Shown: piece by piece, positions 22,953 through 57,364 of the stretch
How positions within the stretch are numbered: the first letter of the stretch is position 1
Layout of the letters: each line of letters begins with the position of its first letter
Source: a virus
Length of the DNA: 62,933 bases
Direction: 5' to 3' (one strand)
IMG/VR virus record: IMGVR_UViG_3300014913_001316
Notes under the pieces: generated by a model
Databases searched by the model: none
The model's input: the letters and a program-made list of their open reading frames with translations, nothing else
What the model was told of the DNA's origin: nothing
Made by a program: the position numbers and the translations under genes

Positions 22953-23938
22953 ACCACCACGCTTATAATAAATATAATGATGATTGTTATTAAAAAATAT
23001 ATTGCTGGTAGTATCGGTATGGATAACCCTGTTGTTTCTGGTATTCCTGATACTATAGTTATTGTATCTGAGAGGTAGTTTTCACCTGTTGCTGTAAGTT
23101 CGTATTCATAGTCGAAACGTGTCTCTGGCATCCTGAAAACAACTGTTCCTTTTTCATTCAAGGGTTTTGTTTCGCCATTGAATGTTACTTCTACGTTTGT
23201 TGGTATTTTTGTCCATGACTTGTCTGGTGGTCCGTATACAACTTTTACTGTGAAGTTTGTTCCTTTTTTTACTTTATGCGGGGCTGATATGTGTAATGGA
23301 AATTTAAAATCTATAAAGAGTTTTATTATAACTCCGCCCATCATACCCATTGGTTTATCGGTGTCTTCTTGAAGTGTGCCTCGTATGTGTAACTCCCAGT
23401 GTTTATTTTCGTTTTCTTTGATATAGCTATGTGTTGCATCATAGAGTACGTCTATGGAGCATGTTCCTCTTGGCTGTATTTTTTCAACTGTTCTCCAAGT
23501 ATAGTCTCCTATTTTTTGCAGGTGAAAGTTTTTACTGCCTTTTAAAGAGATGAAACGTAGTTCATCTCGAGGTATTGGTTCGTAAAAAACTAACTGGTTT
23601 GAATGGCAGTGGGGGCATTCTCCTATGAGTGGGTCTCCATACTGGTATCCAGGTATTGCTTCATATCTCTGTCCTTTCCAACCACATGTTTTACAGGTTA
23701 CTCTGCAGTGTATCATTTCAGTTGGTACTGGTTCAAATGTTTTGTTGTTAGAATATGGTTTCATAACTGTGAAAACACCATATTTTGGTGTATCTCCCCC
23801 GTTTATAAGGGTTGCTTGTGATATTTTTATTGTTTCTTTGTTACTGGTGTAAATATCTGCTGGTCCAAAACCGATTAAACTAGCTGATGCTGAGGTGGAA
23901 AACAGGGTGAGTATTAGTAGGATACATATTTTTTTCAT
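22922..23938 (-). CDS. Secreted, C-terminally anchored protein with internal CxxC...CxxC
   Basis: Signal peptide ending ASA, CKTC...CPHC, C-terminal TM. Confidence 0.7.
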   Translation of the reverse strand: MKKICILLILTLFSTSASASLIGFGPADIYTSNKETIKISQATLINGGDTPKYGVFTVMKPYSNNKTFEPVPTEMIHCRVTCKTCGWKGQRYEAIPGYQYGDPLIGECPHCHSNQLVFYEPIPRDELRFISLKGSKNFHLQKIGDYTWRTVEKIQPRGTCSIDVLYDATHSYIKENENKHWELHIRGTLQEDTDKPMGMMGGVIIKLFIDFKFPLHISAPHKVKKGTNFTVKVVYGPPDKSWTKIPTNVEVTFNGETKPLNEKGTVVFRMPETRFDYEYELTATGENYLSDTITIVSGIPETTGLSIPILPAIYFLITIIIIFIISVVVWRIKKPWYQ

Positions 23939-23949
23939 TTTTTTTTCAC

Positions 23950-26484: not shown

Positions 26485-27392
26485 AATTTTGAAATAGAAT
26501 ACGGGTTGATAATATTTTTCAAAGAATAAACACGAAGCCCGTTGTTGTCACATGCTGTAAAAATGTGTGAAGAATTAGAAGTAGATGCCCAGTATATGCC
26601 ACCATCATATGCTTCTGCTACAAGATGTAGTGTTTTTGTGTAAACTTTTAAACCTTTTTTCCCGCAGCTAGCGTATATATATTTCGCATCAGTGTATACG
26701 TCATGGTACACACCACCATCATATCTCTGTTTAACACCCTCTGGAGTATACATTACCAGCCCATCTGTTGAACATGCACAGTATATTCCATCATCATCTC
26801 CATATATGCCTAAATAATATCTTCCATCGTTAATGTTATACTGGAAATGCAACCGTATACCATCAAAATATAACACGTTTAATCCTTCGCTACCTGAAGC
26901 AGTGTAAACTCGTTGGTTTTTACTCCATACGTCAAGGCATCTAATAGGGTAACTATCAAGTAAGGTAAGGGTTTTTGTATAAACTTTTAAAGAATTAACA
27001 CAGGCTACATAAACATAGTTGTCATCTACAAAAACTTTGTTGTAGAAATCTGTACCGTCTTTAGATTCAGCGGCTAAATGTAACTTGTTTTCTTTAAAAG
27101 AATAAGCTCTAACTCCTTGATAACCGCATGCTGTATAAACTATATTGTTTTTATAAAAAACTCCTCTGTATAATCCTCCATCGTCTATAGTATCTAGTAA
27201 AATTAGTTTCTCTGAAAAAAGATAAACTCGTAAACCATCATCATCACATGCTGTAAAAACTATGTTGTTGTTACATGATACGTCATAGTAGTATCCACCA
27301 TGGTACGCCTCTGCATTCAACTCCAGATATGGTGTTACTGAGGAGACTGGAGTTAAAAAAAACATTATACCTATCAACAATATCTTTTTCAT
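26481..27392 (-). CDS. Secreted LVIVD-like beta-propeller protein
   Basis: Repeated DGGxYxxV..VYTACGxxGLRVY blades, paralogous to the N-terminal part of 23950. Confidence 0.75.
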   Translation of the reverse strand: MKKILLIGIMFFLTPVSSVTPYLELNAEAYHGGYYYDVSCNNNIVFTACDDDGLRVYLFSEKLILLDTIDDGGLYRGVFYKNNIVYTACGYQGVRAYSFKENKLHLAAESKDGTDFYNKVFVDDNYVYVACVNSLKVYTKTLTLLDSYPIRCLDVWSKNQRVYTASGSEGLNVLYFDGIRLHFQYNINDGRYYLGIYGDDDGIYCACSTDGLVMYTPEGVKQRYDGGVYHDVYTDAKYIYASCGKKGLKVYTKTLHLVAEAYDGGIYWASTSNSSHIFTACDNNGLRVYSLKNIINPYSISKL

Positions 27393-27418
27393 AAAACAAG
27401 TAATATTTTTATTATTTT

Positions 27419-27946
27419 TTAATGTTTTGCTAATGTTGCTGTTATGGTGATAGTTTGTTGGTCTCCAGTGCTTGTAGACGTGGGTGCATCGAAACGAGTA
27501 TCAAATGTCTGGTTGTTACCTGCTGGTATGTTGCTTGCTATTACTGTATCGCTTGCTGTAACAATCTGATGCTCTGTACTCCAGCTATCACTACTAGCGT
27601 TGAGACGGTAAACATCTGCCCCTGGACCGTTACCACTCGTAGCAGCACTCCAATCCGCTGCATCATTCGTAATCTGAAGACTAAGGTCTGTGTTTACAGA
27701 AGTATTGTCTAAATCTGCAATCCATGTAACTCCTGTTTCATTAGTCCAATGATGACTACCCATTGCTACAACTCCTAAGTTCCATGAAGTATTAGTAATG
27801 TTGATGTATAAATACTCTCCTTGTACTATTATGTCGAAAGTATCCGTAGTAGCTGCTGATACTTGAGGTGGATGAAGGGGATAAAATGTTAAACTAGTTA
27901 AAATTAGAAAGACCAATGTAATCTTTAACAGAATAGTTTTTTGCAT
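27419..27946 (-). CDS. Secreted single-domain pilin/fimbrillin-like protein (candidate fibre shaft subunit)
   Basis: Signal peptide ending VSA, 11-aa N-terminal strand ATTDTFDIIVQ, beta-sandwich ending TITITATLAKH; own promoter. Confidence 0.65.
   Translation of the reverse strand: MQKTILLKITLVFLILTSLTFYPLHPPQVSAATTDTFDIIVQGEYLYINITNTSWNLGVVAMGSHHWTNETGVTWIADLDNTSVNTDLSLQITNDAADWSAATSGNGPGADVYRLNASSDSWSTEHQIVTASDTVIASNIPAGNNQTFDTRFDAPTSTSTGDQQTITITATLAKH
27421..27682. repeat. 262-bp direct repeat, copy 2
   Basis: See 23952-24213. Confidence 0.9.
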
Positions 27947-28010: not shown

Positions 28011-28364
28011 TTAGAATTCTATTAGCATGTAAATATCTTCATCAGTGGCATGCAATGTCTCTGCAACACTACCAACATTTAGTATTTCAAACTTCCAATA
28101 AAGTGTCTCACCAGGACTCCATTCACTACCTTTCACCGTGCTAATGTCTATCTTACTCGTATTTCCATCAGAGCCAACACTCCAGCTCTGCCAGCTGCCA
28201 CTCATATTACTCCACACACGAACATTGTTTGCAACAGTTATATCACCAATGTCTTCGAAATGCCATGTTATGTTTTTAATGTCTCTATCGTTCATGTTTT
28301 TAAAACTAACAACTGTGCTGTTCACGTTTGTACTACCTGGTGCTGCATCAACCCATTGGATACG
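28011..28364. repeat. 354-bp constant C-terminal block (copies at 37750-38103 and 39665-40018)
   Basis: High DNA identity among the three paralogues. Confidence 0.9.
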
Positions 28365-29882
28365 ATGCAAAGTAGTGTTAAGACCAGTTTCATAAACATA
28401 CTCTGGTGTTGCTATATAGTAAACATTATAGTTCCCACGAAGGTCATAACTAAATGTTACAATAATACGACCATCAACATACTCTGCATTAAGGTAGTTT
28501 ATATCCTTCCCGCTTAGTGGTGTAAAAACCGTATAATCTGTACTCCAGCTACTGCCATCATACACCCTGTATTTTAACACGTTTGAACCGTTAATATAAA
28601 ACAAGACCAAGTTGTCATTCCGTATATCATGTACAATGGCACAACCACCAGTATCAATATCCAATGCTAGCTTGCCCTGGTCAGTCCAAGTTGCTCCATC
28701 ATATGTCCACCAATGCAGGTCATCATTACCGCCATTATACCATACACAGTGTAATATGCCTTTATAAATAGCAAGAGAAGGATAAGGGTAATCAGAAACA
28801 CCACTTACGCTTTTTAACAATGTTTCTCCAGAGTATGGGGTTGAAGAAGCATATGTACTCATATATTCCTCTTTCGCAGATGTCGCATGACCTGCAGCTA
28901 TCTGCCATTTACCGTCATAGTATTTAACATCAGCACCATATGCGTAATAATGACTGTGAGTAGGGCTGTGGTAAGCATGTTGACTTATTCCTGTGCTGCC
29001 TGTATGCCAACTACTACCATCATAATAAGCATAACGGAGATAGTCATCATAGTAATAGTAAACATGAGGTGTATTATTATATACAAAACTGTTGAAAATA
29101 TAAAGACTCTCAGTTTCTACCTCTTCTGGTGATAACAAGACTGTTTTAGACAGGTCATCAGTACGTACACATTTAACCTTATGATTTGTAGAGTCACAAC
29201 TCCAAACATAGTAATCACTTGTATCATTCTTTAGAATAACAGCTCGGTTAATGGTTACAGTATCGTTCAACACAATAAGATGGGGTTGCCCCCAGACATA
29301 CTCAGTAGTAAAACTATACACGAATTCTGTATCACTGCCATCATTAGCAGTAATGTTAAACCAGTATTTAGTCCAACTACCAGTCCAACTACTAACGAGG
29401 AAACTACTCGTGTTATGATAACTAACGCCACCTAAAGCACCACTGCTATAAATTGAAGACCAGCTACCAGATGCGTTAGTATAAATATCTACACTCTGTA
29501 GATTTCCATCACTATCGCTAACGTTCACCGTGAGATACACACCCTCACCAGGTATAACATCTACAAACTGTTCACCATCAGTAATACTACTATACGCTAC
29601 AACCGGAGAAGCAGCTCTACTTACGGGTGTTATAAACGTTAAAACACTAAACAACAACAACACAGTTATAGCAACAGGAACTGCTTTCTTCAACACAGAA
29701 GGAAAGTTGAAAGTAAACTGTGGTTTTATTTTTGATTTAAGTTGTTTAACTTCTTGTTCTTTTTCTTTTAACAGTTTGGTAAGTCTTTCTATTTCTTGTT
29801 TTTCTTCTACTTGTTTACGTAACAGTTCTGCTTCTTCATCCAGTTTCTGGATTTTTTTCCTAAGTTTCTCTACCTCATCCAT
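28011..29882 (-). CDS. Adhesin paralogue A: coiled-coil leader, TM/signal, Ig-like domain, lectin-like beta-propeller, conserved C-terminal domain
   Basis: Start MDEVEK at 29882 (track 29936); YDGSSW/YDGATW blades; C-terminus EDIYMLIEF identical to B and C. Confidence 0.8.
   Translation of the reverse strand: MDEVEKLRKKIQKLDEEAELLRKQVEEKQEIERLTKLLKEKEQEVKQLKSKIKPQFTFNFPSVLKKAVPVAITVLLLFSVLTFITPVSRAASPVVAYSSITDGEQFVDVIPGEGVYLTVNVSDSDGNLQSVDIYTNASGSWSSIYSSGALGGVSYHNTSSFLVSSWTGSWTKYWFNITANDGSDTEFVYSFTTEYVWGQPHLIVLNDTVTINRAVILKNDTSDYYVWSCDSTNHKVKCVRTDDLSKTVLLSPEEVETESLYIFNSFVYNNTPHVYYYYDDYLRYAYYDGSSWHTGSTGISQHAYHSPTHSHYYAYGADVKYYDGKWQIAAGHATSAKEEYMSTYASSTPYSGETLLKSVSGVSDYPYPSLAIYKGILHCVWYNGGNDDLHWWTYDGATWTDQGKLALDIDTGGCAIVHDIRNDNLVLFYINGSNVLKYRVYDGSSWSTDYTVFTPLSGKDINYLNAEYVDGRIIVTFSYDLRGNYNVYYIATPEYVYETGLNTTLHRIQWVDAAPGSTNVNSTVVSFKNMNDRDIKNITWHFEDIGDITVANNVRVWSNMSGSWQSWSVGSDGNTSKIDISTVKGSEWSPGETLYWKFEILNVGSVAETLHATDEDIYMLIEF
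29296..29720. repeat. 425-bp constant N-terminal block (copies at 39095-39519 and 40968-41392)
   Basis: High DNA identity with patchwork polymorphisms. Confidence 0.9.
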
Positions 29883-29883
29883 A

Positions 29884-31497
29884 TTACCACCATAGTTCTT
29901 TTTTTTCAACAATTCTATGGTGAAGATATATGCCAACTACAAATAAGATGATTATTATAATGATAATTGGTATTATTAAAAGTATTGCTAGTTTCCATGC
30001 GAAGATTTCATCTACCTTGTCAAACTGTACAATCCCTGCTCCCCATGCGTTCTGGTCTCCTTTTTTATAACATCCTTCTTCTAGTGCTGACTCGAAAGCA
30101 TCAGATATTACTCCTTTGTTCCAGAAATAAATTATTTTCAATATGTCAATAACTGGTTTATGGTTTGCAATTATAAGAGCACTTCCTCCTGCTATAAGGG
30201 GTGTGCTAAGAGATGTACCGCTTGCTACTCTTTCTTCATTCAACCATGGTCCACGTATGCTTTCTCCTGGTGCTGTTACATCTGGTTTTGGTTCATTTAC
30301 TGGTACTGGTCCACGGCTACTCCAGGTGCAGATAGTATCATCTGTTAAATCTGTAATAGTACGTTGTGGGTCTGATGCTCCAACTGCTACTGCATCTTTT
30401 GAAACTGCTGGTGAAAGGATTGTACTAGGGTTTGGTCCAAGGTTGCCAGCTGCACAGCTTATAACGATTATGCCTTCTCTCCGTAGTTGTTTTATTTTTT
30501 GAGAGTAAACATCATCTGGGTTGCCTATTGCTCCTGCTGAGATACTGATTATATCTGGTTTTAGTTGTTTAGCAATGTCAAGGGCTTGTAGGAAAATAGC
30601 GGGTGTTGTTTTTCCGTCTTTGTCAAATGTTTTAATGCTGATTTGTACTGCGTTTGGTATTTTGTTTTGTAGCATAAATGCTATCTCATAGTTTATAAAC
30701 GTGCCATGTCCATAATTATCTGTTCCTGTTGAAAACGCTGATGTTGTCATCATCCGTATTTTGGATAAATCTATACCGTTGTATGTTCTTGGCATTACTC
30801 CTGAGTCTATTGTTACTATTGTTATTTTGTTAGTCGTATCTGGCAGGTTTAATGCTTTGAGTAGAGTATACATTTCTTCAACAGTGTATCCTTCTGGGTA
30901 TGTTGGTGGTTTAACTGGTGGAATCTGTGGGTTTTTTATTTCAACTTTGATGGTTTTACGGGCTGTATCTGTCAATGAACCGCTGTATATTTTTAGTTTC
31001 ACTGTATATGTTCCTTCTTCATCATATACGTGTGTCTGGTGTTTACCGAGTGCTGTGCTTCCGTCTCCGAAGTTCCATTCCCATGTGTCTATGTCCCCTG
31101 TGGAGAGGTCTACAAATGTTATTTTTTCACCTGGTGAAGGGTGTTCTGGGTAGTATGTAAATCTTGCTACAAGCTCTGCACCTATTGATATGTTTACCCA
31201 TTGTGTTGTTTTTGTTGCATCTGCGGTTGTAGTGTTAGACCCTGTTAAACCATTATGTTCCGCTGTTACTGTTATTATATCTCCTGTGTCTCCTGGAACG
31301 CTTGTAGCGTATAATCCTTGATTGTTGGTTGTTGCAGTGTTTGTTTCGCTGTTGTCAAGGTTTGTTACTGTTACTGTTGCACCTGCTACTGGGTTATCTG
31401 ATGAATCTTTTACGTATCCTGATACTCCCAGTGGGTGTTCTTCTGCAAGAGTAAAATTTGAGAGTAGTGCGATTAAGAGTAGGATGATTAATACCAT
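29884..31497 (-). CDS. Membrane-anchored S8 subtilase with carboxypeptidase-regulatory-like and PKD domains
   Basis: Catalytic D (TIDSG), H (GHGT), N (AAGN), S (SGTSLSTP); PKD motif WEWNFGDG; C-terminal TM. Confidence 0.9.
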   Translation of the reverse strand: MVLIILLLIALLSNFTLAEEHPLGVSGYVKDSSDNPVAGATVTVTNLDNSETNTATTNNQGLYATSVPGDTGDIITVTAEHNGLTGSNTTTADATKTTQWVNISIGAELVARFTYYPEHPSPGEKITFVDLSTGDIDTWEWNFGDGSTALGKHQTHVYDEEGTYTVKLKIYSGSLTDTARKTIKVEIKNPQIPPVKPPTYPEGYTVEEMYTLLKALNLPDTTNKITIVTIDSGVMPRTYNGIDLSKIRMMTTSAFSTGTDNYGHGTFINYEIAFMLQNKIPNAVQISIKTFDKDGKTTPAIFLQALDIAKQLKPDIISISAGAIGNPDDVYSQKIKQLRREGIIVISCAAGNLGPNPSTILSPAVSKDAVAVGASDPQRTITDLTDDTICTWSSRGPVPVNEPKPDVTAPGESIRGPWLNEERVASGTSLSTPLIAGGSALIIANHKPVIDILKIIYFWNKGVISDAFESALEEGCYKKGDQNAWGAGIVQFDKVDEIFAWKLAILLIIPIIIIIIILFVVGIYLHHRIVEKKELWW

Positions 31498-32552
31498 GTT
31501 TTTTGTTTTTGTAATTTTATCACCCCTATTGTTATTAGTATACTTATTATTGTTATTGGTATTAAAACTATTAACCAGTTTATTCCTTCTTGTTTAGGTA
31601 TTGGCTGGTTTGATAGTGTGAACACTACTCTGCCGTTGTTTACAAAGCTGAGATGTTTTGTTTCTTCTCCTGTTTTGATGGTGTAATCCCCAGGTGGTGT
31701 TATATAGACTGCTACTCCTGTTTCGTTTGTGTATACTGTTGTTGTCTGGTTGTTTCTTTGGATGGTTACTGCTGTGTTTGGTAACGGGTTGCCTTGCTCG
31801 TCTTGTACTATTATGGAAAGGGTAATGTTGTTTATTGTATTGTTTGTAGTGTTTTGTTGAGGTGGGGGTTGTGTAGTGTTTACTGGGTATACTTGTATGG
31901 TTCTGGTTTTACTGTTGTAGTTTTGCTGTTGGTCTTCAACTTCTAAACGGATTTGGTAAACTCCAGGGTTTGTAAAAATGTATTCAACTGTTTCTCCATA
32001 TAATACTTCATCGTTTATAGTCCAGATGTATGTGGTTATGTCGTTGTCTTCATCTGTTGAAGTGCTGTGGAATGTTACTGTGTTGTTTATATTTGGGTTT
32101 GTTGGTGTGTATACAAAGTTTGCAGTTGGAACATGATTATTTGAAGGGGGAGGAGAGGGAGGCGGTGAAGGTTGGTTTTCATCATTGTTGTTGCTCTCCT
32201 CCTCTGAGGGTATGGTTATTGAAAGGTTAAGCCAGTTTGTTTTAAGAGAAGTATCTATTGTTGCTGTGTTTGAGTAGATTATGCCATTGTAGTTGCATGT
32301 TACTTCTACTATGTCTCCGTTTTTTGCTTCGAGTGCTACGGCGTAGTATCCTCCGTTTGCTGTTACATATGTTGTTTGAAGGTTTGTGTTTTTGTTGGTT
32401 ACTGTTACTGTTAAACCATCTGTTGGTATGTTGTTTACTGTTACGATTCCTCCTATTCCTACTGGTATGCCTATGCCAGTTGTTAACCTACTATACAGTA
32501 TTAATAATGTAAGTAATACGAATGTTGTTGTTTTATTGTTTTTTCTTCTCAT
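31488..32552 (-). CDS. Surface protein: carboxypeptidase-regulatory-like domain, Pro linker, PKD, second beta domain, C-TM
   Basis: IPVGIGGIV...GYYAV; PTANFVYTP...STDED..ITTYIW. Confidence 0.8.
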   Translation of the reverse strand: MRRKNNKTTTFVLLTLLILYSRLTTGIGIPVGIGGIVTVNNIPTDGLTVTVTNKNTNLQTTYVTANGGYYAVALEAKNGDIVEVTCNYNGIIYSNTATIDTSLKTNWLNLSITIPSEEESNNNDENQPSPPPSPPPSNNHVPTANFVYTPTNPNINNTVTFHSTSTDEDNDITTYIWTINDEVLYGETVEYIFTNPGVYQIRLEVEDQQQNYNSKTRTIQVYPVNTTQPPPQQNTTNNTINNITLSIIVQDEQGNPLPNTAVTIQRNNQTTTVYTNETGVAVYITPPGDYTIKTGEETKHLSFVNNGRVVFTLSNQPIPKQEGINWLIVLIPITIISILITIGVIKLQKQKTWY

Positions 32553-33021
32553 ATATTATTCCTACTAGCATTGATAGTATTGCTGGTATGAAAAGCCAGC
32601 TTATTGCAAACTGATGAGATGGTTGTTCTTGTGTAACTCCTAATGTTAGATTTGCCCATTGTGTTTTCTGTGTTATGTCTACTATAATGATTTTACTTGC
32701 CTGCATCCCGTTATGGTAGCATTGTATTTTTATTCTGTCTCCGTTGTATGCTGGTAAACCTATAGCGTAGTAGCCATGTTGTGTTTTGAAAGAGTTGTTT
32801 GCATCTGATTCAAGGTTTCGTGCTGTTACTGTTACTCCATCTGGTACGTATGTGCCGTTTTGGTATTTTACTGTGCCTCCTATACCTACAGGTAAGGGTG
32901 GTACTGTTTCTGATATAGCAACTGGTGTTTGGTTTAACAATATCGTATGTATTATTGCTCCTATGAAAAGGAGTGTTCCTGCTAGTAGGAAGATTTTTCC
33001 TATTTTGTTTTTCATCTTCAT
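32533..33021 (-). CDS. Double-anchored protein with carboxypeptidase-regulatory-like domain
   Basis: LPVGIGGTV...GYYAIGL...TQWANLTL, paralogous to the domains in 29884 and 31488. Confidence 0.75.
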   Translation of the reverse strand: MKMKNKIGKIFLLAGTLLFIGAIIHTILLNQTPVAISETVPPLPVGIGGTVKYQNGTYVPDGVTVTARNLESDANNSFKTQHGYYAIGLPAYNGDRIKIQCYHNGMQASKIIIVDITQKTQWANLTLGVTQEQPSHQFAISWLFIPAILSMLVGIIYEKKKQ

Positions 33022-33022
33022 A

Positions 33023-36000
33023 TTATATCCATCCTATTTTTATTCTAGTTCCAGCATCTACATGTATCACTATTACGTCATATCCTGAAATTGTTACGTC
33101 ATCTCCAACGTATCCTATCCAGTAGCTATTCCATCTTCCGTTAACTGTATCGTATTTGAAAACCCAGTCTCCTGTTTGTAAACCTATTTTTGTAAGGTTT
33201 GCCATTGTTGTTGAGGTCAGGTTGCTATAGCCTATGTAGTATCTCCCAGTTGTAGTGGTTATGAAATCCTGTGATGCTGTTACGTTTTCTGAGATGTTGA
33301 TACGTGTTGTTTTGTTTTCATCTCCTGTTACTGCTACTGTATCCCATGTGGATAGGTTGAAGTTTGTACCCACTGGGTTTGATACTGTTGGGTATAGGAA
33401 TAGGCTCTCCCATTTACCAGATGTAGGGTTGTATTTATGTATCCACCATCCTTTTGAAAGGTTGAAGGTTGTTGCAAAAGTTGAAGCGTTTGTATCGTTT
33501 TTGAGATGATAAGTGATATAGTTTACACCTGCCCCTGTGCCTGTTTTGTTGAATGTAACGTTTCTATCAACGTACATGTATCCTGGACTGCCTGGTGTTT
33601 CTGCATGCATCTCTGTTGATACGTTTGCTGATGCATTATAAATGTATAATGTTATATTGTAAATGTTACTAATGTTGAATTTACGTGATAGGTTAAACGG
33701 TGTATGAATGCCAGAGTTGTATCTCTTTGAAGCGATTTGTACACCGTTTATCTTCCAAACTACTTGTGTAGCATTTATTGATTTATCTATAAGAGTGATT
33801 GTGTCATCAGTGGTTGGATGGTATGGTGTCCAGTTGAAATCAGCCCAGAAATAAAATTGTGTTGTAAAGTTCATATAGTAATCTACTGAGTCATACCCAT
33901 CTGATAAATGTACACGCCAGTGATAGTTTTGCTGTGTCTGGTTAAATAGTAGTTCGTCTTGGATATATGGATTGTTGTGATATGTATCATAGGTATCCTC
34001 TGCATGGCTTAACCTGAGTATCCAGTCGTTCCAGTTTGGCTGAGATGGGTCATCAATGTATATTTGTATTGATACATTGTCTTGTTCGTAATCTGATACA
34101 TTGGCTATGAGTTTTACAAACATACGCCATACTCCTGTTACTGATTTACGTTGTACTGCTGCATAGTTTTCTCCATCTTCTGGATTTGCTATGAGTGAAG
34201 GTGCATGGTTCTGTGGAGTATAAGACCATACTGGGCTTTGTCTCTGGTTAGAACTATCATTTGCTATAACGTACCATTGAATTGTTGTACCGTTTGACAT
34301 AGCTGGTAAACTGGTTGTTTCTGCTCTACTGCCACTTGGTACGTTATGTACTGTAGCCCATGCTGTATCATTGGATGCATAGTAGAATGTAACGTTCATC
34401 GGGTCGTTATCAGTGTCTTCTACGTAGCATGAAAAATTATGTACTTTGTGTACTCCAAATGTTGTTCCATCTTCTGGATACGGATTCGATGGTTGTTTTA
34501 CTAATCCTACTTCTACCGTTGCACCCATAGTGTAATAAATATCACTTGGTTGCTCACCACTATATACTGGTTTAACATAGATTGCACCACTCATAGTGTT
34601 GTAAAGCAGTAGTGGTTCTGTATCTGTATATGGTTGTGTTGTGAAATGATAAATGTCTTCTTTATAGTATCCAAGTGTACTGTTTTCAGCTGTTATCTTC
34701 CACCAGTATTTAGTGTTGTATTGTAACCCATCCATGTAGCTGTTAGCTGTAGCGTTTGGTTGAAGTTGCGTGATTGTGTTATGGAGACTCCATGTCTCAT
34801 TCACTGTGTCGTTTGAATAAAATTTTATATCATAATGGTTTTTATCTCCTGATTTATTTACCCAGCAGTATAAATGTACGTTGATTGGCTGGTTAGTGCT
34901 ACCATTAACTGGGTGTACATTGAGGAAATAAACGTCATAGTATACTGAAATCTGAGCCCCCATAGTGTAATAGATATCATCTGGTTGCTCCCCAGTGTAT
35001 ACTGGTTTAACATAGATTGCACCACTCATGGTATCATAGATTATAGGGGGTTCTCCTTCTACTGTTTTTGTTATAAAGTTGTATATATCGCTGTAAACGG
35101 TTGAGTTGAACAGATTGTTAAACGCTTGTACATACCACCAGTATTTAGTATTGTATTGTCTACCATCATAGTATACTGCTACTGGTGTATACCGTTCTAT
35201 GTAGAGGGATAGGTTTTGAAGCACTGGTGTTTTTGTTTTATCTGATGTGGAAAAGTTTTGTCTAAACTTGATTCTATAACTATCCATATATGTTAAATTA
35301 GATATGCCGTTGATGCTACCACCGTTTGAAGCGGTTTGCCAGCTTCCCCATGTGCTACCGTTATCTGTTGAGAGAGAATAGTATATATCCAAGCTTGTGC
35401 CAGATGGTTCTGTTGAACTCCAAGAAATTGTACCAGAATCATATGCAAGACCTGAAAGGTTGTAAACTGGGGAGATACGGTAGCCATTGTATGAGTAATC
35501 ATATGCTGTGATTACTACGTTGTCTAAATAAGTGAAATCCGTGCAATCGTTTGTACCGTTGTTGAAGATTCTGAGTTGGAAGGAACTGCTCATGTAAGAG
35601 GTTATGTCTTCTGAGAAAAACTGCAACTGGTTGTTGTTATGTATTTTTTCTAGTTCAACCCATTTAGAGCCATCATAGATTTCAAGGATTGAGTCTTCAC
35701 CTGTTTCTAATCCTCTACTCCCCATGTAGAATTCTAGTTTCGCTTCAACATATCCAGACAAGTCTACTGTTGAAGAATTATGTACATCATCACCAATTGC
35801 TCGGAGATAATATGAACCTATAGGGTTTATCACTCCATCGGTGGTGTTTACTCCACTTTCTGGGCAACTACTGTTCTGTATAGTCCATCCCTGTGCTTGT
35901 CCATCTTCAAAGTTTTCATTCATAAGAACATGGCTATTCTTTTTTAAACGGAGATAATTGTTCTCGTTTACTTCTACATCTGATAATGTACCAGTTGAAA

Positions 36001-37741
36001 AATTACTATCATATATTGTAAGGTTGTTTGCTCCTGTTCCTAGTTGTAAAGGTTTAGTATCCTGTATCTGAACCCATGTCTCGTTTACTGTATCGTTCCC
36101 ATGAAAACTTGCATTCCATGTTATAATGTCTCCAGATTTATAAGTATAAATTTTAAGCTGTGGATGTAGACTTATGTTTGTACTCTGATTTGTAGGGTGT
36201 TCTTCTACAAAAAAAGGTTTTGCAAATACTCGAACCTGAGCACCCATTGTGTAATAGATACTACTCGGTTGCTCCCCCGTGTATACTGGTTTAACATAAA
36301 TACTACCACTCATGGTATCATAAACACTTGTTGGCTCTGTATCATTGTAGTATGTATTGATAACCCATACGCTGCTATTATCACTCCAGTATTCATCATC
36401 TTTTGCTTTTGCATACCAATAATACCTAGTGCCGTTGTAATACAAGTAGTATGAAGTGTTACAGTTTACAATCTGCCCATTTGTCCAACCCGTAGTTGTA
36501 TAGTTGTACCCTATAAGCCTACCAGAAGGGTATTCGTAGAATGAAACATTGTATATTTTACCAAGATATGTAGTTGAGGATTGAGACCCTGTTGCCCATC
36601 CTGTTCCATCCTCAAGAGTTCCATCGTTACTCCCCCAGCTATCATATGTTGTAGTTCCAGTGTTTTCATCAAACTTCCACCAGGATACAAGACCACGTTT
36701 TGCACCATTATCGTTTTTACCATAAAAATTTGCTTTTACTTCACCCTCTGTCAAAGCAACATTGTAAACTTTTATATAATCTATTTTTCCATCAAATGTT
36801 TTATCATTCCCAACATAGGAACATTCTCCGATTACGCAATCAGCAGTATTCGGACTTGGAGTATTGGGTTCATAGTATGAATAAACAAGAGAGCCGTTTT
36901 TATAAACATACATTGTATGTGTATCATTATCGAACACAACAGTAAGATAAACCCATGTTTGCAATGGTAATGCTGCTTCTCCAACTGATTGGTTATGTCC
37001 ATCAACACATACATGGAGCTCCCATGTTGTTCCATTACCATACAATGCGATACCCCATCCAGTGTTTGCATCTGTCATTTTTGATATTATAGTATCAAGT
37101 TTACCATCAGCAGGGTTATCTTCCACCCACAACGCCATATCTACTGAAAAAGATGAGGTAAAATTCAACGAGTTGTCATCAGGAACTCTAACATCATCAT
37201 TTGCACCATCTAAATCTACTGCTGTCCATCCAAATGTATAATCAGGGTGATACACAACTGCTGACAAGTCAACATTACCTTTTTCTTTGTAACTATTATT
37301 ATCTGGATAAACAGGTGAAACAACTGGTTTTCTATCTGTTGTAAAACTATATGTCTGGTTATTCCAAGTATTATCTGTACCGTCTTTCACACGTAAACGC
37401 CATTGATACGTTGTATTGGTTGTGTTGAAACTTGTTTCATCTTGATACCATGAACCATTACCTACATCAATCTGATGCTGCCTGTTAACCCATGCTGTAC
37501 CGTTCCAGATATCCATAAAAAATTCCATATCATCCCCGCCTGTCGTGTCATTGATTTGCCAGGAGAGGTGTGTATAGCCTCCTGGGTCAGGTGGGTTGTT
37601 CACTATTTCTACATGTTGAGCAGAATCAGATGGAGAAATGTTTGAAATGTTTATAGTTGCAGAAGCAAAAGAGGATAAAAATATAATACACAGTAATACA
37701 ATTGCAGGAATAGTTTTTGAATGTTTAAATGATGAAATCAT
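33023..37741 (-). CDS. Giant secreted modular protein (1572 aa): Ig-like repeats, LamG/concanavalin-like domain, three novel 40-aa repeats, PKD-like domain, two C-terminal repeats
   Basis: LamG: VDLDGANDDV...TWVYLTVVFD...YKNG...FDGKIDYIKVYNVALT...WWKFDE; repeated TxYxWxxxAxD...YxFTT domains; many NxS/T sequons. Confidence 0.85.
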   Translation of the reverse strand: MISSFKHSKTIPAIVLLCIIFLSSFASATINISNISPSDSAQHVEIVNNPPDPGGYTHLSWQINDTTGGDDMEFFMDIWNGTAWVNRQHQIDVGNGSWYQDETSFNTTNTTYQWRLRVKDGTDNTWNNQTYSFTTDRKPVVSPVYPDNNSYKEKGNVDLSAVVYHPDYTFGWTAVDLDGANDDVRVPDDNSLNFTSSFSVDMALWVEDNPADGKLDTIISKMTDANTGWGIALYGNGTTWELHVCVDGHNQSVGEAALPLQTWVYLTVVFDNDTHTMYVYKNGSLVYSYYEPNTPSPNTADCVIGECSYVGNDKTFDGKIDYIKVYNVALTEGEVKANFYGKNDNGAKRGLVSWWKFDENTGTTTYDSWGSNDGTLEDGTGWATGSQSSTTYLGKIYNVSFYEYPSGRLIGYNYTTTGWTNGQIVNCNTSYYLYYNGTRYYWYAKAKDDEYWSDNSSVWVINTYYNDTEPTSVYDTMSGSIYVKPVYTGEQPSSIYYTMGAQVRVFAKPFFVEEHPTNQSTNISLHPQLKIYTYKSGDIITWNASFHGNDTVNETWVQIQDTKPLQLGTGANNLTIYDSNFSTGTLSDVEVNENNYLRLKKNSHVLMNENFEDGQAQGWTIQNSSCPESGVNTTDGVINPIGSYYLRAIGDDVHNSSTVDLSGYVEAKLEFYMGSRGLETGEDSILEIYDGSKWVELEKIHNNNQLQFFSEDITSYMSSSFQLRIFNNGTNDCTDFTYLDNVVITAYDYSYNGYRISPVYNLSGLAYDSGTISWSSTEPSGTSLDIYYSLSTDNGSTWGSWQTASNGGSINGISNLTYMDSYRIKFRQNFSTSDKTKTPVLQNLSLYIERYTPVAVYYDGRQYNTKYWWYVQAFNNLFNSTVYSDIYNFITKTVEGEPPIIYDTMSGAIYVKPVYTGEQPDDIYYTMGAQISVYYDVYFLNVHPVNGSTNQPINVHLYCWVNKSGDKNHYDIKFYSNDTVNETWSLHNTITQLQPNATANSYMDGLQYNTKYWWKITAENSTLGYYKEDIYHFTTQPYTDTEPLLLYNTMSGAIYVKPVYSGEQPSDIYYTMGATVEVGLVKQPSNPYPEDGTTFGVHKVHNFSCYVEDTDNDPMNVTFYYASNDTAWATVHNVPSGSRAETTSLPAMSNGTTIQWYVIANDSSNQRQSPVWSYTPQNHAPSLIANPEDGENYAAVQRKSVTGVWRMFVKLIANVSDYEQDNVSIQIYIDDPSQPNWNDWILRLSHAEDTYDTYHNNPYIQDELLFNQTQQNYHWRVHLSDGYDSVDYYMNFTTQFYFWADFNWTPYHPTTDDTITLIDKSINATQVVWKINGVQIASKRYNSGIHTPFNLSRKFNISNIYNITLYIYNASANVSTEMHAETPGSPGYMYVDRNVTFNKTGTGAGVNYITYHLKNDTNASTFATTFNLSKGWWIHKYNPTSGKWESLFLYPTVSNPVGTNFNLSTWDTVAVTGDENKTTRINISENVTASQDFITTTTGRYYIGYSNLTSTTMANLTKIGLQTGDWVFKYDTVNGRWNSYWIGYVGDDVTISGYDVIVIHVDAGTRIKIGWI
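34510..34625 (-). repeat. Intragenic 40-aa repeat, copy 3 (DTEPLLLYNTMSGAIYVKPVYSGEQPSDIYYTMGATVEV)
   Basis: Read directly; coordinates approximate. Confidence 0.9.
34945..35060 (-). repeat. Intragenic 40-aa repeat, copy 2 (GEPPIIYDTMSGAIYVKPVYTGEQPDDIYYTMGAQISV)
   Basis: Read directly; coordinates approximate. Confidence 0.9.
36230..36345 (-). repeat. Intragenic 40-aa repeat, copy 1 (DTEPTSVYDTMSGSIYVKPVYTGEQPSSIYYTMGAQVRV)
   Basis: Read directly; coordinates approximate. Confidence 0.9.
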
Positions 37742-37749
37742 TATCCTTT

Positions 37750-39645
37750 TTAGAATTCTATCAACATGTAAATATCTTCATCAGTGGCATGTAAATCCTC
37801 TACTACATTGCCCACGTTTAGTATTTCAAACTTCCAATAAAGTGTCTCGCCTGGTTGCCATTCACTACCCTTCACCGTGCTAATGTCTATCTTACTCGTA
37901 TTCCCATCAGAGCCAACACTCCAGCTCTGCCAGCTCCCACTCATATTACTCCACACCCGAATATTGTTCGCAACAGATATATCACCAATGTCCTCGAAAT
38001 GCCATGTAACGTTCTTGATATCCCTATCGTTCATGTTTTTGAAACTAACAACTGTGCTGTTCACATTGTTAGCATTTGGTGCTGCATCAACCCACTGTAT
38101 GCGGTTGTATGTTGTATTGAAACCAGAAACTGATTCAACATAATCTGGTGCAGAAATCATATAAATATTGTAATTCCCACGTAGGTTGTATGAACACACT
38201 ATCACAATACGATGGTCTATATATGCTATATATGGGTGTTTTATTGTTTTTCCACTGGCTGGTGTGAACAAAAGATGGGGGCTACTCCACGAACCTGTTG
38301 GGTCTGTTAATATACGATAATACATATTACCCGAAGAATTAACATATACTAATACTATCTGATTATTAACTGGGTCTTTCACAATGCTACATCCATACTC
38401 TCCGATGTCTAATTCTATATCCCCCTTGTCATTCCAGCTAACACCATCATAAACCTGCCAGTGTAAATCATCCCCTGTGTCATGATATACTAAAATAAGT
38501 TTACCGTTGAGAATTTGTGTAGATGGAAAATAATCATGGTCATATGACGATATAGACTCTATATTTGAACTATAGCTGGTAGCAAAAGGATATGTCCCAT
38601 AATACCATGTAAGAGCATTCCACCAGTTAGAAGCATAACTATAAGTATGCGAAAGAAAGGTATTCCATTTTCCATCAAAATATATAATTGATATTCCTGT
38701 TCCTTCTAAAATATCTGCATTCATATGTGTAATTGTTGTTTTTGTTTTATCAACCCATGCGTTTCCGTTCCATCGTATTGTATAATAATATGCCCAATCA
38801 CTATTACTATAGTCGTCAGCATATGCAATGTGTGGAGAATTGTTATAAATATATAAGTATGCATCTCTCGTCATTACCTTGTATCCACTACCCCATACAT
38901 TTCTCACATCTGGGTCGGCAGTGAGTTTGTTTTTAATAGCAAAAGCAGTCCCAGCAGTATCATGTATTGTATATAACGCATAGCTATCGTAATCAAGCCA
39001 TGCAATCCAATAATCGTTGGTGCTGTTTTTTAGAATAGAAGGATAATAATAATTATATGAGTCGTTTACAGCAACTGCATGCTCTTTACCAAATACATAC
39101 TCAGTAGTAAAACTATACACGAACTCTGTATCACTACCATCATTAGCAGTAATATTAAACCAGTATTTAGTCCAACTACCAGTCCAACTACTAACGAGGA
39201 AACTACTCGTATTATGATAACTAACGCCACCAAGAGAACCACTACTATAAATTGAAGACCAGCTACCAGATGCGTTAGTATAAATATCCACACTCTGCAG
39301 ATTTCCATCGCTATCGCTGACATTAACCGTGAGATACACACCCTCACCAGGAATAACATCTACAAACTGCTCACCATTACTAATACTACTATACGCTACA
39401 ACCGGAGAAGCAGCTCTACTTACGGGTGTTATAAACGTTAAAACACTAAACAACAACAATATAGAAACAGCCACAGGAACTGCTTTCTTCAACACAGAAG
39501 GAAACCTGAAAGTAAACTGTTTTTTAATGGGTTTCTTCTTTGAAGGTGCTGGGCTGTTTGCTGCCCGCATCAACTCCATAAACTGCTCTTTATCAATATA
39601 CCCTTCTCTAAGGAGAGCTATATACTCTCTTTTTTCTTCATCCAT
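37750..39645 (-). CDS. Adhesin paralogue B (SHOCT-like leader; most divergent central propeller)
   Basis: LLREGYIDKEQF leader; constant N and C blocks shared with A and C. Confidence 0.8.
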   Translation of the reverse strand: MDEEKREYIALLREGYIDKEQFMELMRAANSPAPSKKKPIKKQFTFRFPSVLKKAVPVAVSILLLFSVLTFITPVSRAASPVVAYSSISNGEQFVDVIPGEGVYLTVNVSDSDGNLQSVDIYTNASGSWSSIYSSGSLGGVSYHNTSSFLVSSWTGSWTKYWFNITANDGSDTEFVYSFTTEYVFGKEHAVAVNDSYNYYYPSILKNSTNDYWIAWLDYDSYALYTIHDTAGTAFAIKNKLTADPDVRNVWGSGYKVMTRDAYLYIYNNSPHIAYADDYSNSDWAYYYTIRWNGNAWVDKTKTTITHMNADILEGTGISIIYFDGKWNTFLSHTYSYASNWWNALTWYYGTYPFATSYSSNIESISSYDHDYFPSTQILNGKLILVYHDTGDDLHWQVYDGVSWNDKGDIELDIGEYGCSIVKDPVNNQIVLVYVNSSGNMYYRILTDPTGSWSSPHLLFTPASGKTIKHPYIAYIDHRIVIVCSYNLRGNYNIYMISAPDYVESVSGFNTTYNRIQWVDAAPNANNVNSTVVSFKNMNDRDIKNVTWHFEDIGDISVANNIRVWSNMSGSWQSWSVGSDGNTSKIDISTVKGSEWQPGETLYWKFEILNVGNVVEDLHATDEDIYMLIEF

Positions 39646-39664
39646 TTTTTATTTTGCCTCCTTT

Positions 39665-41551
39665 TTAGAATTCTATTAGCATGTAAATGTCTTCATCAGT
39701 AGCATGTAGTGTCTCTGCAACGCTACCCACGTTTAGTATTTCAAACTTCCAATAAAGTGTCTCACCAGGACTCCATTCACTGCCTTTAACCGCACTAATA
39801 TCTATCTTACTCGTATTCCCATCAGAGCCAACACTCCAGCTCTGCCAGCTACCACTCATATTACTCCACACACGAACATTGTTCGCAACAGTTATATCAC
39901 CAATGTCCTCGAAATGCCATGTAACGTTCTTGATATCCCTATCGTTCATGTTTTTAAAACTAACAACTGTGCTGTTCACATTGTTAGCATTTGGTGCTGC
40001 ATCAACCCACTGGATACGATGCAACGTAGTGTTAAAACCACTCTCATAGACATACTCTGGAGAAGCAATATAATAGACATTCCAGTTTCCACGAAGGTTA
40101 TAACTAAAGGTTACAATAACACGACCATCAACATACTCTGCATTGAGATACTGTATATCTTTACCATTCATTGGTGTGAAAACCGTGTAGTTTGTACTCC
40201 AGCTACTGCCATCATACACCCTGTATCTTAACACGTTTGAACCATTAATGTAGAACAAGACTAGGTTGTCATTCCGTATATCATGCACAACTGCACAACC
40301 ACCAGTATCAATATCCAATGCTAGCTTGCCCTGGTCAGTCCAACTTGCTCCATCATATGTCCACCAATGCAGGTCATCATCACCTTGGTCACCATTATAA
40401 TATGCATACTTATGCCATACACAGTGCAGTAATCCTTTATAGATAGCAAGAGAAGGATAAGGGTAAGCAGAAAAACCTGCTCCTGCTGTTGAATATATTT
40501 TTTCGCTTTTTAGTAATGTGCCAGCAGTATGCGGCGAAGAAGAAGAATATGTAGACATATATGCGGCATAACCAGAAATTACTGCCCCTGTGGCTATTTG
40601 CCATTTACCATCGTAGTATTTAACGTCAGCGCCATAAGCATAAATAGTACGACCACTGTATTTTTGCCGTATTCCCGTGCTACCTGTATGCCAACTACTG
40701 CCATCATAATAAGCATAGCGGAGATAGTTATCATAGTAATAGTAAACATGAGGCATGTTGTTGTAAACGAAACTGTTATAAACAGGTCCACCGCTTGTAA
40801 CACTTTCTGGTGATAACAAGACTGTTTTAGAAAGGTCATCAGACCGTGTACATTTAACACCATTTATATCACTCCAGATGTAGTAATCATTTGTATCATT
40901 CTTTAGAATAACAGCTCGGTTAATGGTTACAGTATCGTTCAACATTATAAGACGGGGTTGCCCCCATACATATTCGGTAGTAAAACTATACACGAACTCT
41001 GTATCACTACCATCATTAGCAGTAATATTAAACCAGTATTTAGTCCAACTACCAGTCCACTCGCTAACAAGGAAACTACTCGTGTTATGATAACTAACGC
41101 CACCTAAAGCACCACTGCTATAAATTGAAGACCAGCTACCAGATGCGTTAGTATAAATATCTACACTCTGTAGATTTCCATCGCTATCGCTAACATTAAC
41201 CGTGAGATACACACCCTCACCAGGTATAACATCTACAAACTGTTCACCATCAGTAATACTACTATACGCCACTACTGGGGATGCAGCTCTGCTTATGGGT
41301 GTTATAAACGTTAAAACACTAAACAACAACAACACAACAACAGCCACAGGAACTGCTTTCTTCAACACAGAAGGAAACCTGAAAGTAAACTGTTTTTGTT
41401 TTTTAGGTTGTTTGGGAACAGTTTGAGCTGATGTGTTCAACTGTTCCATGAGACGCATAAATTCTTCTTTAGTGATGTAGCCTTCTTTAAGAAGAGAAAT
41501 GTATTTGTCTTCTCTCCTCTCAATTATTTCTTCTTTCATATCTTCCTCCAA
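39665..41551 (-). CDS. Adhesin paralogue C (SHOCT-like leader; propeller similar to A with different loops)
   Basis: LLKEGYITKEEF leader; constant blocks shared with A and B. Confidence 0.8.
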   Translation of the reverse strand: MEEDMKEEIIERREDKYISLLKEGYITKEEFMRLMEQLNTSAQTVPKQPKKQKQFTFRFPSVLKKAVPVAVVVLLLFSVLTFITPISRAASPVVAYSSITDGEQFVDVIPGEGVYLTVNVSDSDGNLQSVDIYTNASGSWSSIYSSGALGGVSYHNTSSFLVSEWTGSWTKYWFNITANDGSDTEFVYSFTTEYVWGQPRLIMLNDTVTINRAVILKNDTNDYYIWSDINGVKCTRSDDLSKTVLLSPESVTSGGPVYNSFVYNNMPHVYYYYDNYLRYAYYDGSSWHTGSTGIRQKYSGRTIYAYGADVKYYDGKWQIATGAVISGYAAYMSTYSSSSPHTAGTLLKSEKIYSTAGAGFSAYPYPSLAIYKGLLHCVWHKYAYYNGDQGDDDLHWWTYDGASWTDQGKLALDIDTGGCAVVHDIRNDNLVLFYINGSNVLRYRVYDGSSWSTNYTVFTPMNGKDIQYLNAEYVDGRVIVTFSYNLRGNWNVYYIASPEYVYESGFNTTLHRIQWVDAAPNANNVNSTVVSFKNMNDRDIKNVTWHFEDIGDITVANNVRVWSNMSGSWQSWSVGSDGNTSKIDISAVKGSEWSPGETLYWKFEILNVGSVAETLHATDEDIYMLIEF

Positions 41552-41575: not shown

Positions 41576-42034
41576 TTATGTTACTATATTTGTGAAACTC
41601 TCTGTAACCCATCTCCCTAAAGGGTTACGAGGGGCTATTCCTATCACTACACCTACAACTTGTTGTTTTGATACAAGGGTGTCAAACCCTGTGTTGTAGT
41701 CTCCTTTTACAAGGTATTCATTGTTTCTGATAGATATAATTCTATGTCCTATGAGTGTATCATCTTTGGAGTAGATTAGTATGTCTCCCACTCGTGGGTT
41801 GAAACATGGGCTGTTTTTTGATAGTATAACGAGGATGTCGCCGTTTTGTATAGTAGGTTGCATACTATAGCCTATTGCTTTACTTGTGAAGACATAGTTT
41901 TTATTTTCATTTATTAAATATAGTAATGGGAAATCTACAGAGAATATTAAAATAGTACATAAGAGGATTATTATGGTTGTGATGATGATTTTGTTATCCT
42001 CTATAATGTTCACCTCAGCTCGTTTTTCAGACAA
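41576..42034 (-). CDS. Signal peptidase I, ER/archaeal Sec11/SipW type (S26B)
   Basis: N-terminal TM, GYSMQPTIQNGDIL (Ser), GDILIY, GHRI (His), KGDYN (Asp). Confidence 0.9.
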   Translation of the reverse strand: MSEKRAEVNIIEDNKIIITTIIILLCTILIFSVDFPLLYLINENKNYVFTSKAIGYSMQPTIQNGDILVILSKNSPCFNPRVGDILIYSKDDTLIGHRIISIRNNEYLVKGDYNTGFDTLVSKQQVVGVVIGIAPRNPLGRWVTESFTNIVT

Positions 42035-54711: not shown

Positions 54712-55320
54712 TTAATCTGAGTTTGTTTTAAAAGCACAATCAAAAACATGTTTACCAAGTTGAGGATAAACGCAATTACGTAGAATTTGACGTTTATTTT
54801 TTATTTCATACTTTGATAAATCAAAACCATGCTTATTTTGCAATTCAGGTATCTGAATAATTCTAATATTGTCATTATCAAACTTTTTATCAATAATTTC
54901 AAAATTAGCCCAAAACATGTGACGTTGTAAGACTATTCCGTCAATTAATGGCTTATAATAAGGTTTAACATTTTCAACAACCCAATAACATTCTGCATGA
55001 TATTTTAAAAACAATATCTCTTGCCAAAGAGACATATCTGGATAAACTGGTTTTGTTCCACCATACCTTACACAAATATTTTTTCGAAAACTACTATGGC
55101 TTTGACAAGGTGGACTGCTCCATATAAAATCCCAACCATCATCATAATGTTCAAGGAGATATTGATGGGCGTCACCGATTACAACAGTGTCATCAGGAAA
55201 AAAATCCTGATAAATTTTAGCTATCTTCGGATTTATTTCAACTGCTGTAACATCCACATCTGCCCATAGTTTACGGTTACCACCAATACCCGCATACAAA
55301 TTTAGAACATTTTTTTTCAT
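54712..55320 (-). CDS. C5-cytosine DNA methyltransferase (short phage type)
   Basis: Motif I LNLYAGIGG, motif IV WSSPPCQSHS, motif VI VVENV, motif VIII RH.FWAN. Confidence 0.85.
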   Translation of the reverse strand: MKKNVLNLYAGIGGNRKLWADVDVTAVEINPKIAKIYQDFFPDDTVVIGDAHQYLLEHYDDGWDFIWSSPPCQSHSSFRKNICVRYGGTKPVYPDMSLWQEILFLKYHAECYWVVENVKPYYKPLIDGIVLQRHMFWANFEIIDKKFDNDNIRIIQIPELQNKHGFDLSKYEIKNKRQILRNCVYPQLGKHVFDCAFKTNSD

Positions 55321-55335
55321 AATTACTCCTTTAGT

Positions 55336-56267: not shown

Positions 56268-56358
56268 TATTTTTGTAATATTAATCTTACTATTTAAAAG
56301 TTGCTCTTTTCGAAAGTTTTTTATGTGAAAAACTGATTATGGTAAAACTGGTGATGTT

Positions 56359-56640: not shown

Positions 56641-56641
56641 T

Positions 56642-57057: not shown

Positions 57058-57058
57058 A

Positions 57059-57247: not shown

Positions 57248-57364
57248 AAGCAGGATAGGATGAAACATGAAATGTTTATGATTTTGCACCTGCTTTCGTT
57301 TTTTGTTTCATCCCCTGAAACCAACAAAAAAAGGTGAAATTGGAAAGATTAAAGGAGGTATATT

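Follow-up and report, generated by a model that had tools for sequence, protein, structure and literature searches.

Three paralogous propeller genes with constant ends and probably exchanged middles on a putative Thermoplasmata-associated mobile element

Three paralogous genes, here called A, B, and C, are located on a DNA stretch of 62,933 nucleotides (IMG/VR virus record IMGVR_UViG_3300014913_001316), which was analyzed at its full length and is referred to as the window. The proteins they encode share constant ends, which enclose a variable, propeller-like middle. We consider it highly probable that these genes diversify by homologous recombination between the constant flanks, with the caveat that the sequences are metagenome assemblies. 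The reading as a whole is that the genes encode exported surface proteins with shuffled propellers, that one face of the propeller serves in recognition, and that the genes belong to a mobile element associated with Thermoplasmata; on balance we favor this reading, with some reserve.

Constant ends and mosaic polymorphisms

A, B, and C are intact open reading frames (ORFs) on the minus strand, encoding 623, 631, and 628 amino acids (Table 1). In the protein alignment, each begins with a charged leader (approximately 45-55 residues) that differs among the three, and continues with a single hydrophobic helix and a conserved SRAAS. The three remaining parts are a constant stretch ending at EYV(W/F)G, the variable middle, and, starting at RIQWVD, a C-terminal stretch that is again constant. 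In the codon alignment, the pairwise DNA identities for all three pairs are 0.87-1.00 in the N block (nt 181-600; approximately 432-435 bp) and 0.82-0.98 in the C block (about nt 1680-2007; 354 bp including the stop codon). In the middle, the identity is 0.57-0.95 between A and C, but 0.27-0.62 between either of these and B. These values confirm three paralogues with constant ends and a divergent middle, as described in an initial annotation made from the sequence alone; the indels in Tyr/His-rich loops that it reported between A and C are also found in the protein alignment. The edges of the blocks are sharp and coincide with domain borders in the AlphaFold2 model described below: the common sequence begins at CAGTTTACTTTC, upstream of which the three genes cannot be aligned, and B departs from the common sequence directly after GAGTATGT. 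All copies of the blocks are direct repeats on the minus strand, and the repeats around the genes are limited to these blocks and to repeats inside a neighboring giant gene.

Sites at which two copies agree against the third were scored as informative, and their clustering was tested with 20,000 shuffles. The N block has 44 informative sites in 14 runs (A and B agree at 15, A and C at 17, B and C at 12); the C block has 54 in 20 runs (9, 25, and 20, respectively). We read the partner split as almost even among the three possible pairs in both blocks. Not one of the 20,000 shuffles gave so few runs, for the N and C blocks alike. The runs test upholds the partner switching along the blocks that had been proposed. 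The four diagnostic DNA strings that had been quoted for this switching occur exactly, and only, in the pairs to which they had been assigned.

For the N and C blocks, synonymous divergence (dS) among the three genes amounts to 0.23-0.24 and 0.44-0.60, respectively. In the middle, dS exceeds 3 when A or C is compared to B, and it is saturated in the leader. Because silent sites are homogenized only inside the blocks, purifying selection on the protein is not sufficient to explain the likeness of the ends; that recombination acts beyond purifying selection to keep the ends alike is well supported by these sequence comparisons.

Middle types, gene positions, and copy number in related contigs

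A search of 5.8 billion proteins returned 55 relatives, all of them from metagenomes or metagenome-assembled genomes (MAGs), and scans of contig collections recovered 55 metagenome loci and four contigs from Thermoplasmata or Thermoplasmatales MAGs. Nine close loci (L005-L013) are syntenic with the window, their neighboring genes having approximately 95% DNA identity, and many related strains are present within one sample series. Leaders from the same position are 94-100% identical across contigs, compared to 22-51% between positions, and the leader phylogeny consists of three position clades (support 100/100). The leader of A, for example, is 94-98% identical to the leaders of A-position genes in related contigs, but only 24-29% to those of B and C. 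The phylogenies of the blocks and of the middles do not follow gene position. These comparisons suggest that the leader marks the position of a gene, while the middle marks its type.

At least four middle types are found between flanks of about 90-94% identity in the nine contigs and in one protein (P0014) from a further contig of 48 kb, in line with the earlier expectation that the middles of related genomes would differ. Position B carries three middle types and position C two. The B middle of the window is 41-43% identical to those of A and C in one alignment and 35-36% in another, and it is unique at position B among the close relatives. At this position, locus L007 has another middle type (47-49% identical to A, B, and C), and L008 and L006 have the common, A/C-like middle. 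In P0014, the flanks of the gene at position C are 94% and approximately 90% identical to those of the window, but the middle is only 20-27% identical; this middle still matches the propeller profile of the family (E 1.7e-67). The propellers nearest to the B middle are from distant lineages (P0053, P0052, and P0048; 52-57% identity). Their flanks are only 37-50% identical to those of B, whose own flanks are local.

The number of copies also varies. Locus L005 has a single gene at the site of C and B in the window, with the junction inside the C block, and the two C blocks of L008 are 99.6% identical. The tandem pairs of L014 and L015, a lineage only 45-50% identical to A, B, and C, share about 150 identical C-terminal residues; their middles are roughly 50% identical. 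Among the close loci, block identity is equal within and between contigs (0.91 for the N block, 0.88-0.92 for the C block) and below that of the neighboring genes (approximately 0.95); for this reason, the block alleles appear to behave as one mixed, population-wide pool across paralogues and strains. Homogenization of the blocks only within one genome was rejected, as the N-block identity within contigs equals that between contigs. The contrast in dS, the segment trees, the middle types, and the one-gene variant in L005 all agree with the initial proposal that the genes diversify by recombination between constant flanks.

Predicted fold

An AlphaFold2 model computed with 51 family members as input (predicted local distance difference test (pLDDT) 88, predicted template modeling score 0.79) has, in order, two leader helices, a membrane helix, a beta-sandwich (residues 89-188), a propeller (approximately 190-500), and a second beta-sandwich (505-624). 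The propeller superposes on six-bladed structures of the sialidase fold (Z 24-26, 275-290 residues, root mean square deviation (rmsd) 3.0-3.8 A, about 11% identity). In VIA-align, Z was 26.2 to 5hx0 and 25 to both 8t1z and 1eut (275-288 residues, rmsd 3.0-3.4 A), and the match to the Porphyromonas gingivalis sialidase extends over the preceding beta-sandwich as well. The middle is thus predicted to be a six-bladed propeller of the sialidase/neuraminidase type, which agrees with the propeller-like character first assigned to it. Folded alone, the C block is again modeled as a beta-sandwich (pLDDT 90); its best PDB match has Z 6.3, below the noise guide of 8, and no relative can be named. The weak matches of this block to cannulae and chaperone-usher pilins were not relied on, its ESM Atlas scores of 0.82 are at noise level, and the fold matches in BFVD are to generic propellers.

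Pfam has no family for A, B, or C at E <= 0.01, including no BNR or sialidase model, and neither PHROGs nor NCBIfam has a family for any of them. The matches found, to 'choice-of-anchor T', were below threshold and spanned the hydrophobic helix as well as the beginning of the N block. Among PDB sequences, a profile search returned T4 gp53 as the sole match (E 0.02), which we judged to be due to chance. The repeated turn is YDGxxW and not the canonical Asp box SxDxGxTW, which places the propeller outside GH33 by sequence. The residues that are invariant in the family lie in tight turns and strands, as assigned by strand order.

The two constant beta-sandwiches match each other weakly (the hidden Markov model (HMM) of the C block on N-block residues, independent E-value 0.006-0.036), and the motif SGSW is present in both; they may be distant duplicates.

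Variable loops

Variation within a type was determined from ten common-type copies, and family-wide variation from 51 members. In the ten copies, amino-acid changes and indels cluster in every second loop of blades 1-4. The ratio of nonsynonymous to synonymous polymorphism (pN/pS) is approximately 0.9-1.5 in these variable loops versus 0-0.3 in most other elements. The tight turns between the variable loops, including the YDGxxW turns, are invariant, and blades 5-6 approach the blocks in constancy. The same alternation is seen family-wide, where the alternate loops differ from the others in the fraction of the majority residue (0.36 vs 0.57), in gaps (18% vs 1%), and in the number of insertion columns (87 vs 12). 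Alternate loops of a propeller share one face; the variable loops should therefore form one exposed half-face of the modeled propeller. Strand order, within-type variation, and family-wide variation are consistent in placing the variability on exposed, alternating loops, where the initial annotation had expected it.

Probable export and the conserved gene cluster

A Shine-Dalgarno-like motif precedes each of the three genes. A starts directly after the stop codon of the second of two subtilase genes, C starts 24 nt after its upstream gene, and B lies 19 nt after C and 8 nt before a giant LamG gene (1572 amino acids). Given these short spacings to their neighbors, A, B, and C are all within one long run of co-oriented genes. 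The ATG at 41539 is more likely to be the start of C than the TTG at 41551, because a GGAGG is found 5 nt upstream of the former.

The N-terminal helix is the sole strongly hydrophobic stretch of the three proteins. N-glycosylation sequons number 13-14 versus 6-8 expected, and most of them are in the two sandwiches. Both the helix and the excess of sequons speak for export. A gene for an archaeal-type signal peptidase I is adjacent to the propeller gene and syntenic with it across the family, an arrangement of the SipW operon type. The N-terminal 400-580 residues of the giant protein, including the LamG domain, retain 55-78% identity across lineages; this far exceeds the conservation of the remaining cluster, the propeller proteins included.

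Translated searches with all proteins of the window revealed that the order of the cluster is kept in more than 25 loci, MAG contigs included, down to 26-40% identity. The cluster comprises the genes starting at window positions 49354, 48198, and 47475, followed by genes for a PKD protein, an S8 subtilase, a small membrane protein, the signal peptidase, the propeller protein(s), the giant LamG protein, a CarboxypepD_reg protein, a second PKD protein, and a second S8 subtilase. Most of the distant lineages have one propeller gene; the lineage of the window has the tandem pair and A. Searches with HMMs for the N block, the middle, and the C block gave no match in any other ORF of the window.

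The carrier element

Full-length family members were found in four of 197 genomes of the class Thermoplasmata, and the N-block module alone, inside very large ORFs, in about ten more genomes of the class. Among 1.84 billion representative proteins, approximately 20 full-length representative clusters belong to the family; IMG/VR contains no relative of it. The window encodes Ku, an ATP-dependent ligase, a PCNA-like protein (weak match), an RFC-like clamp-loader ATPase, an MCM ATPase, an RNase H (RVT_3/RNase_H), the small subunit of primase (weak match), and a C5 cytosine methylase. Alongside this replication module, no recognizable capsid, packaging, virion, or tail gene and no tRNA gene was found in the window, whose ORFs are mostly without matches. 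One MAG contig that has the cluster likewise encodes methylases, a radical SAM gene, and unmatched ORFs. The carrier appears to be a sporadic mobile element associated with Thermoplasmata, which could be a virus or a plasmid.

In the ORFs scanned, which did not cover every small ORF, no reverse transcriptase (RT) family was found; the RVT_3 match at 59687-60262 corresponds to an RNase H domain. The scanned ORFs also gave no match to a recombinase or invertase family. Together with the direct orientation of all copies, this fits the earlier suggestion that no RT or invertase is needed. The first interpretation holds in part: it stands with regard to recombination, the propeller, the exposed loops, and the absence of RT and invertase from the ORFs scanned. 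The label adhesin and the binding of host glycans find no such support, the fold being one that sialidases and lectins also have but that lacks a relative at the sequence level. The word host also presumes a virus, for which no capsid or packaging gene is known in the window.

Proposed mechanism and alternatives

In the mechanism that we propose, the constant blocks would serve as homology arms for ordinary homologous recombination, which would act between paralogues, as gene conversion, and between co-occurring elements, as exchange. Recombination would swap whole propeller cassettes and patch the blocks with short conversion tracts, and unequal crossover would alter the copy number of the propeller genes; the exchange of cassettes would require no dedicated enzyme. 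The adjacent signal peptidase would cleave off the leader. The variable loops would make up one face of the propeller, as a putative binding surface, and the constant sandwiches would hold the protein to a shared partner. The simplest candidates for this partner, which is a guess, are the syntenic giant LamG protein and the envelope. That the variable face binds and the sandwiches dock the protein to a common partner is, for the two taken jointly, a proposition that we regard as evenly balanced.

Several considerations count against the reading of A, B, and C as exported, shuffled recognition proteins. In Pfam, PHROGs, NCBIfam, and PDB, the proteins have no relative by sequence whose function is known. 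A pN/pS near 1 in short loops is no proof of positive selection, and the face of the loops was assigned by strand order under the standard propeller topology and not from coordinates. A docking domain common to A, B, C, and the giant protein is unsupported by sequence, as the HMMs found none. An uncleaved N-terminal anchor is equally possible as cleavage at the RAA site. The window is a metagenome assembly, in which exact runs common to the paralogues reach 79-113 nt, and all the compared relatives are likewise metagenome assemblies, in which assembly switches are possible. With exact runs of this length, single conversion tracts could be assembly switches; the overall pattern is independent of such tracts.

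The proteins might instead be targets: exposed antigens or receptors that viruses, episymbionts, or competing elements attack, with shuffling providing escape or exclusion. Variable exposed loops, cassette replacement, and change in copy number fit this possibility equally well, and a downstream fibre-like cassette at 23950-27946 is also unusually divergent between related contigs (64-80% DNA identity compared to about 95% for its neighbors), which suggests a general diversifying pressure on surface parts. No feature separates this possibility from the binding model. A repertoire is a better fit for three intact, co-expressed copies within a single operon than antigenic variation that expresses one form at a time, and we consider it unlikely that the proteins are such targets. 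We give a similarly low probability to the possibility that the propeller paralogues are the target-recognition parts of an unrecognized kind of Thermoplasmata virus or transfer apparatus. A conserved secreted and membrane module of 20-25 kb, with the signal peptidase, the subtilases, the giant LamG protein, and the fibre cassette, would then replace the known capsid and tail toolkits, and the exchange of cassettes between co-occurring elements would set which cells are reachable.

Somewhat more doubtful still is that the propellers act as enzymes (of the sialidase type, other glycoside hydrolases, or receptor-destroying enzymes), the different middles representing different substrate specificities and the proteins degrading extracellular polymers beside the two neighboring subtilases. 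The best structural matches are indeed sialidases, GH93 arabinanases, and related hydrolases (Z 24-26), the order of sandwich, propeller, and sandwich resembles that of large bacterial sialidases (8t1z, 1eut), and the two S8 subtilases are within the same cluster. Yet Pfam, NCBIfam, and PDB gave no sequence match to hydrolase families, and the family-invariant residues are, by strand order, in turns of the YDGxxW type and in strands. Across the 51 members, variability and indels are highest in the loop set to which the usual active-site face belongs, and a conserved catalytic constellation is therefore hard to fit. Finally, it is very improbable that there was no biological recombination, with the ends held by purifying selection alone and the mosaic created by assembly switching: the long exact runs and the many related strains in one sample series would favor such switching, but synonymous sites are homogenized too (dS 0.23-0.60, with saturation elsewhere), the blocks end sharply at domain borders, independent contigs from different samples have the same architecture with different middles, and constant ends recur in a distant lineage.

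Comparison to known systems

In the logic of its exchange, the system that we propose for A, B, and C appears closest to the bab genes of Helicobacter pylori. Up to three full-length surface paralogues (babA, babB, and babC, at loci A, B, and C) are homologous at their ends and divergent in between; each locus can harbor any of the types, gene conversion creates chimeras, and the number of occupied loci varies by strain (PMC4552749). A, B, and C resemble them in being intact paralogues whose 5' and 3' parts are homologous and whose middle diverges, in their mosaic tracts and tree incongruence (runs test, dS contrast, and segment trees), in having differing types at the same locus, and in the change in copy number (L005). 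They differ in belonging to an unrelated family and fold, as secreted propeller proteins rather than outer-membrane adhesins, and in being archaeal and on a mobile element, with two copies arranged in tandem within an operon. For A, B, and C, there was no sign of slipped-strand phase variation.

Receptor-binding proteins of phages consist of a conserved attachment module and a distal module, which related elements exchange by recombination. A, B, and C are similar in that their constant parts presumably attach to a fixed structure and that the genes are within the block of secreted proteins of a mobile element. In contrast to the phage proteins, both ends are constant, and not the N-terminus alone; there is no recognizable virion, tail, or capsid gene in the window and no match in IMG/VR or PHROGs. 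In antigenic variation from silent cassettes (Neisseria pilE/pilS, Borrelia vlsE, Anaplasma msp2), a central variable region is changed by gene conversion. The variable center between constant regions is common to both, but A, B, and C are all intact with their own ribosome-binding sites, and there are no silent or truncated donors.

The large sialidases of P. gingivalis (PG_0352) and M. viridifaciens (68-kDa form) also have a propeller between beta-sandwiches (Z 25, rmsd 3.2-3.4 A, 276-283 residues); they differ from A, B, and C in the identity of only about 11%, in the lack of a BNR or sialidase Pfam match in the latter, and in the usual active-site face, which is hypervariable in the A/B/C family. 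The location of a signal peptidase I gene beside genes for secreted structural or adhesive proteins, its putative substrates here, is similar to tapA-sipW-tasA. For the TasA-like archaeal bundling pili, no dedicated peptidase was found in the archaeal loci examined (PMC9245690). The propeller proteins have no counterpart in tapA-sipW-tasA or in the loci of these pili, and none of the cluster proteins tested matched the TasA family. A diversity-generating retroelement differs from A, B, and C, for which no RT is present in the ORFs scanned and no repeats are found around the genes beyond the blocks and the giant-gene repeats. The same applies to an invertase shufflon of the phiCh1 type, as the copies are all direct and the ORFs scanned contain no invertase or recombinase.

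Cassette shuffling is already well known in bacteria and phages; it would be new for this undescribed family on an undescribed archaeal element. As the mechanism is familiar, the gain is a new system and not a new principle: a clear example, backed by population data, of how cassettes are shuffled in a surface protein that an uncultivated archaeal mobile element encodes. It pinpoints the fastest-diversifying part of an opaque 40-kb block of secreted proteins and indicates, from the model, one face of propeller blades 1-4 as the likely recognition surface. If a ligand were found, one could ask what such elements attach to, be they viruses, conjugative elements, or providers of adhesion structures to their host.

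Coordinates and additional observations

Table 1. Coordinates of the propeller genes, their parts, and selected neighbors in the window.
Feature	Position	Strand	Remarks
Paralogue A	28011..29882	-	623 aa; ATG at 29882 preceded by GGTGG
A leader	29721..29882	-	Charged, helical, specific to position A
A constant N block	29286..29720	-	Hydrophobic helix, conserved RAA site, first beta-sandwich
A variable middle	28365..29285	-	Predicted six-bladed propeller, common type
A constant C block	28011..28364	-	Predicted C-terminal beta-sandwich and stop codon
Paralogue B	37750..39645	-	631 aa; AGGAGG upstream of start
B constant N block	39088..39519	-	
B variable middle	38104..39087	-	Predicted propeller of another deep type
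B constant C block	37750..38103	-	
Paralogue C	39665..41551	-	628 aa from TTG 41551, or 624 aa from ATG 41539
C constant N block	40958..41392	-	
C variable middle	40019..40957	-	Predicted common-type propeller
C constant C block	39665..40018	-	
Hypervariable loops	Residues 229-231, 253-256, 274-275, 296-302, 327-328, 355-362, 382-392		C numbering
Giant secreted LamG protein	33023..37741	-	1572 aa; directly downstream of B; syntenic across the family
Signal peptidase I, archaeal type	41576..42034	-	Directly upstream of C; TIGR02228, 61.6 bits vs cutoff 51.85
Replication/repair genes	558-7027 and 54712-61159		

The conserved cluster spans about 20 kb of the window (29884-49959) and was also found in loci L003, L004, L017, L022, L027, L030-L032, L043, L045, L050, L053, and L056. 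Many of its members have a signal peptide and a C-terminal membrane anchor with a basic tail. Elsewhere in the window, ten co-oriented ORFs of 104-124 amino acids (8058-11750) have no similarity among themselves.

The lone N-block module in Thermoplasmata genomes sits in ORFs of 519 to more than 4000 amino acids. One Thermoplasmatales MAG (G002) contains three family members that are complete or nearly so, two of which are cut off by contig ends, the outcome expected if the constant blocks break assemblies. The contigs concerned in these two observations are C123, C6, C104, and C5 of G002 and C26 of G001.

In locus L009 (8382-9617), the subtilase gene and gene A are separated by a 1.6-kb insertion, which encodes an OrfB/TnpB protein of the IS605 family with Cas12f1-like TNB, HTH_OrfB_IS605, and OrfB_IS605 domains. 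The cassette 3' of gene A (23054-27402 in the window, 12473-16232 in L009) has 64-80% DNA identity between the two, compared to approximately 95% for the other genes, and is a second hotspot of surface-protein divergence.

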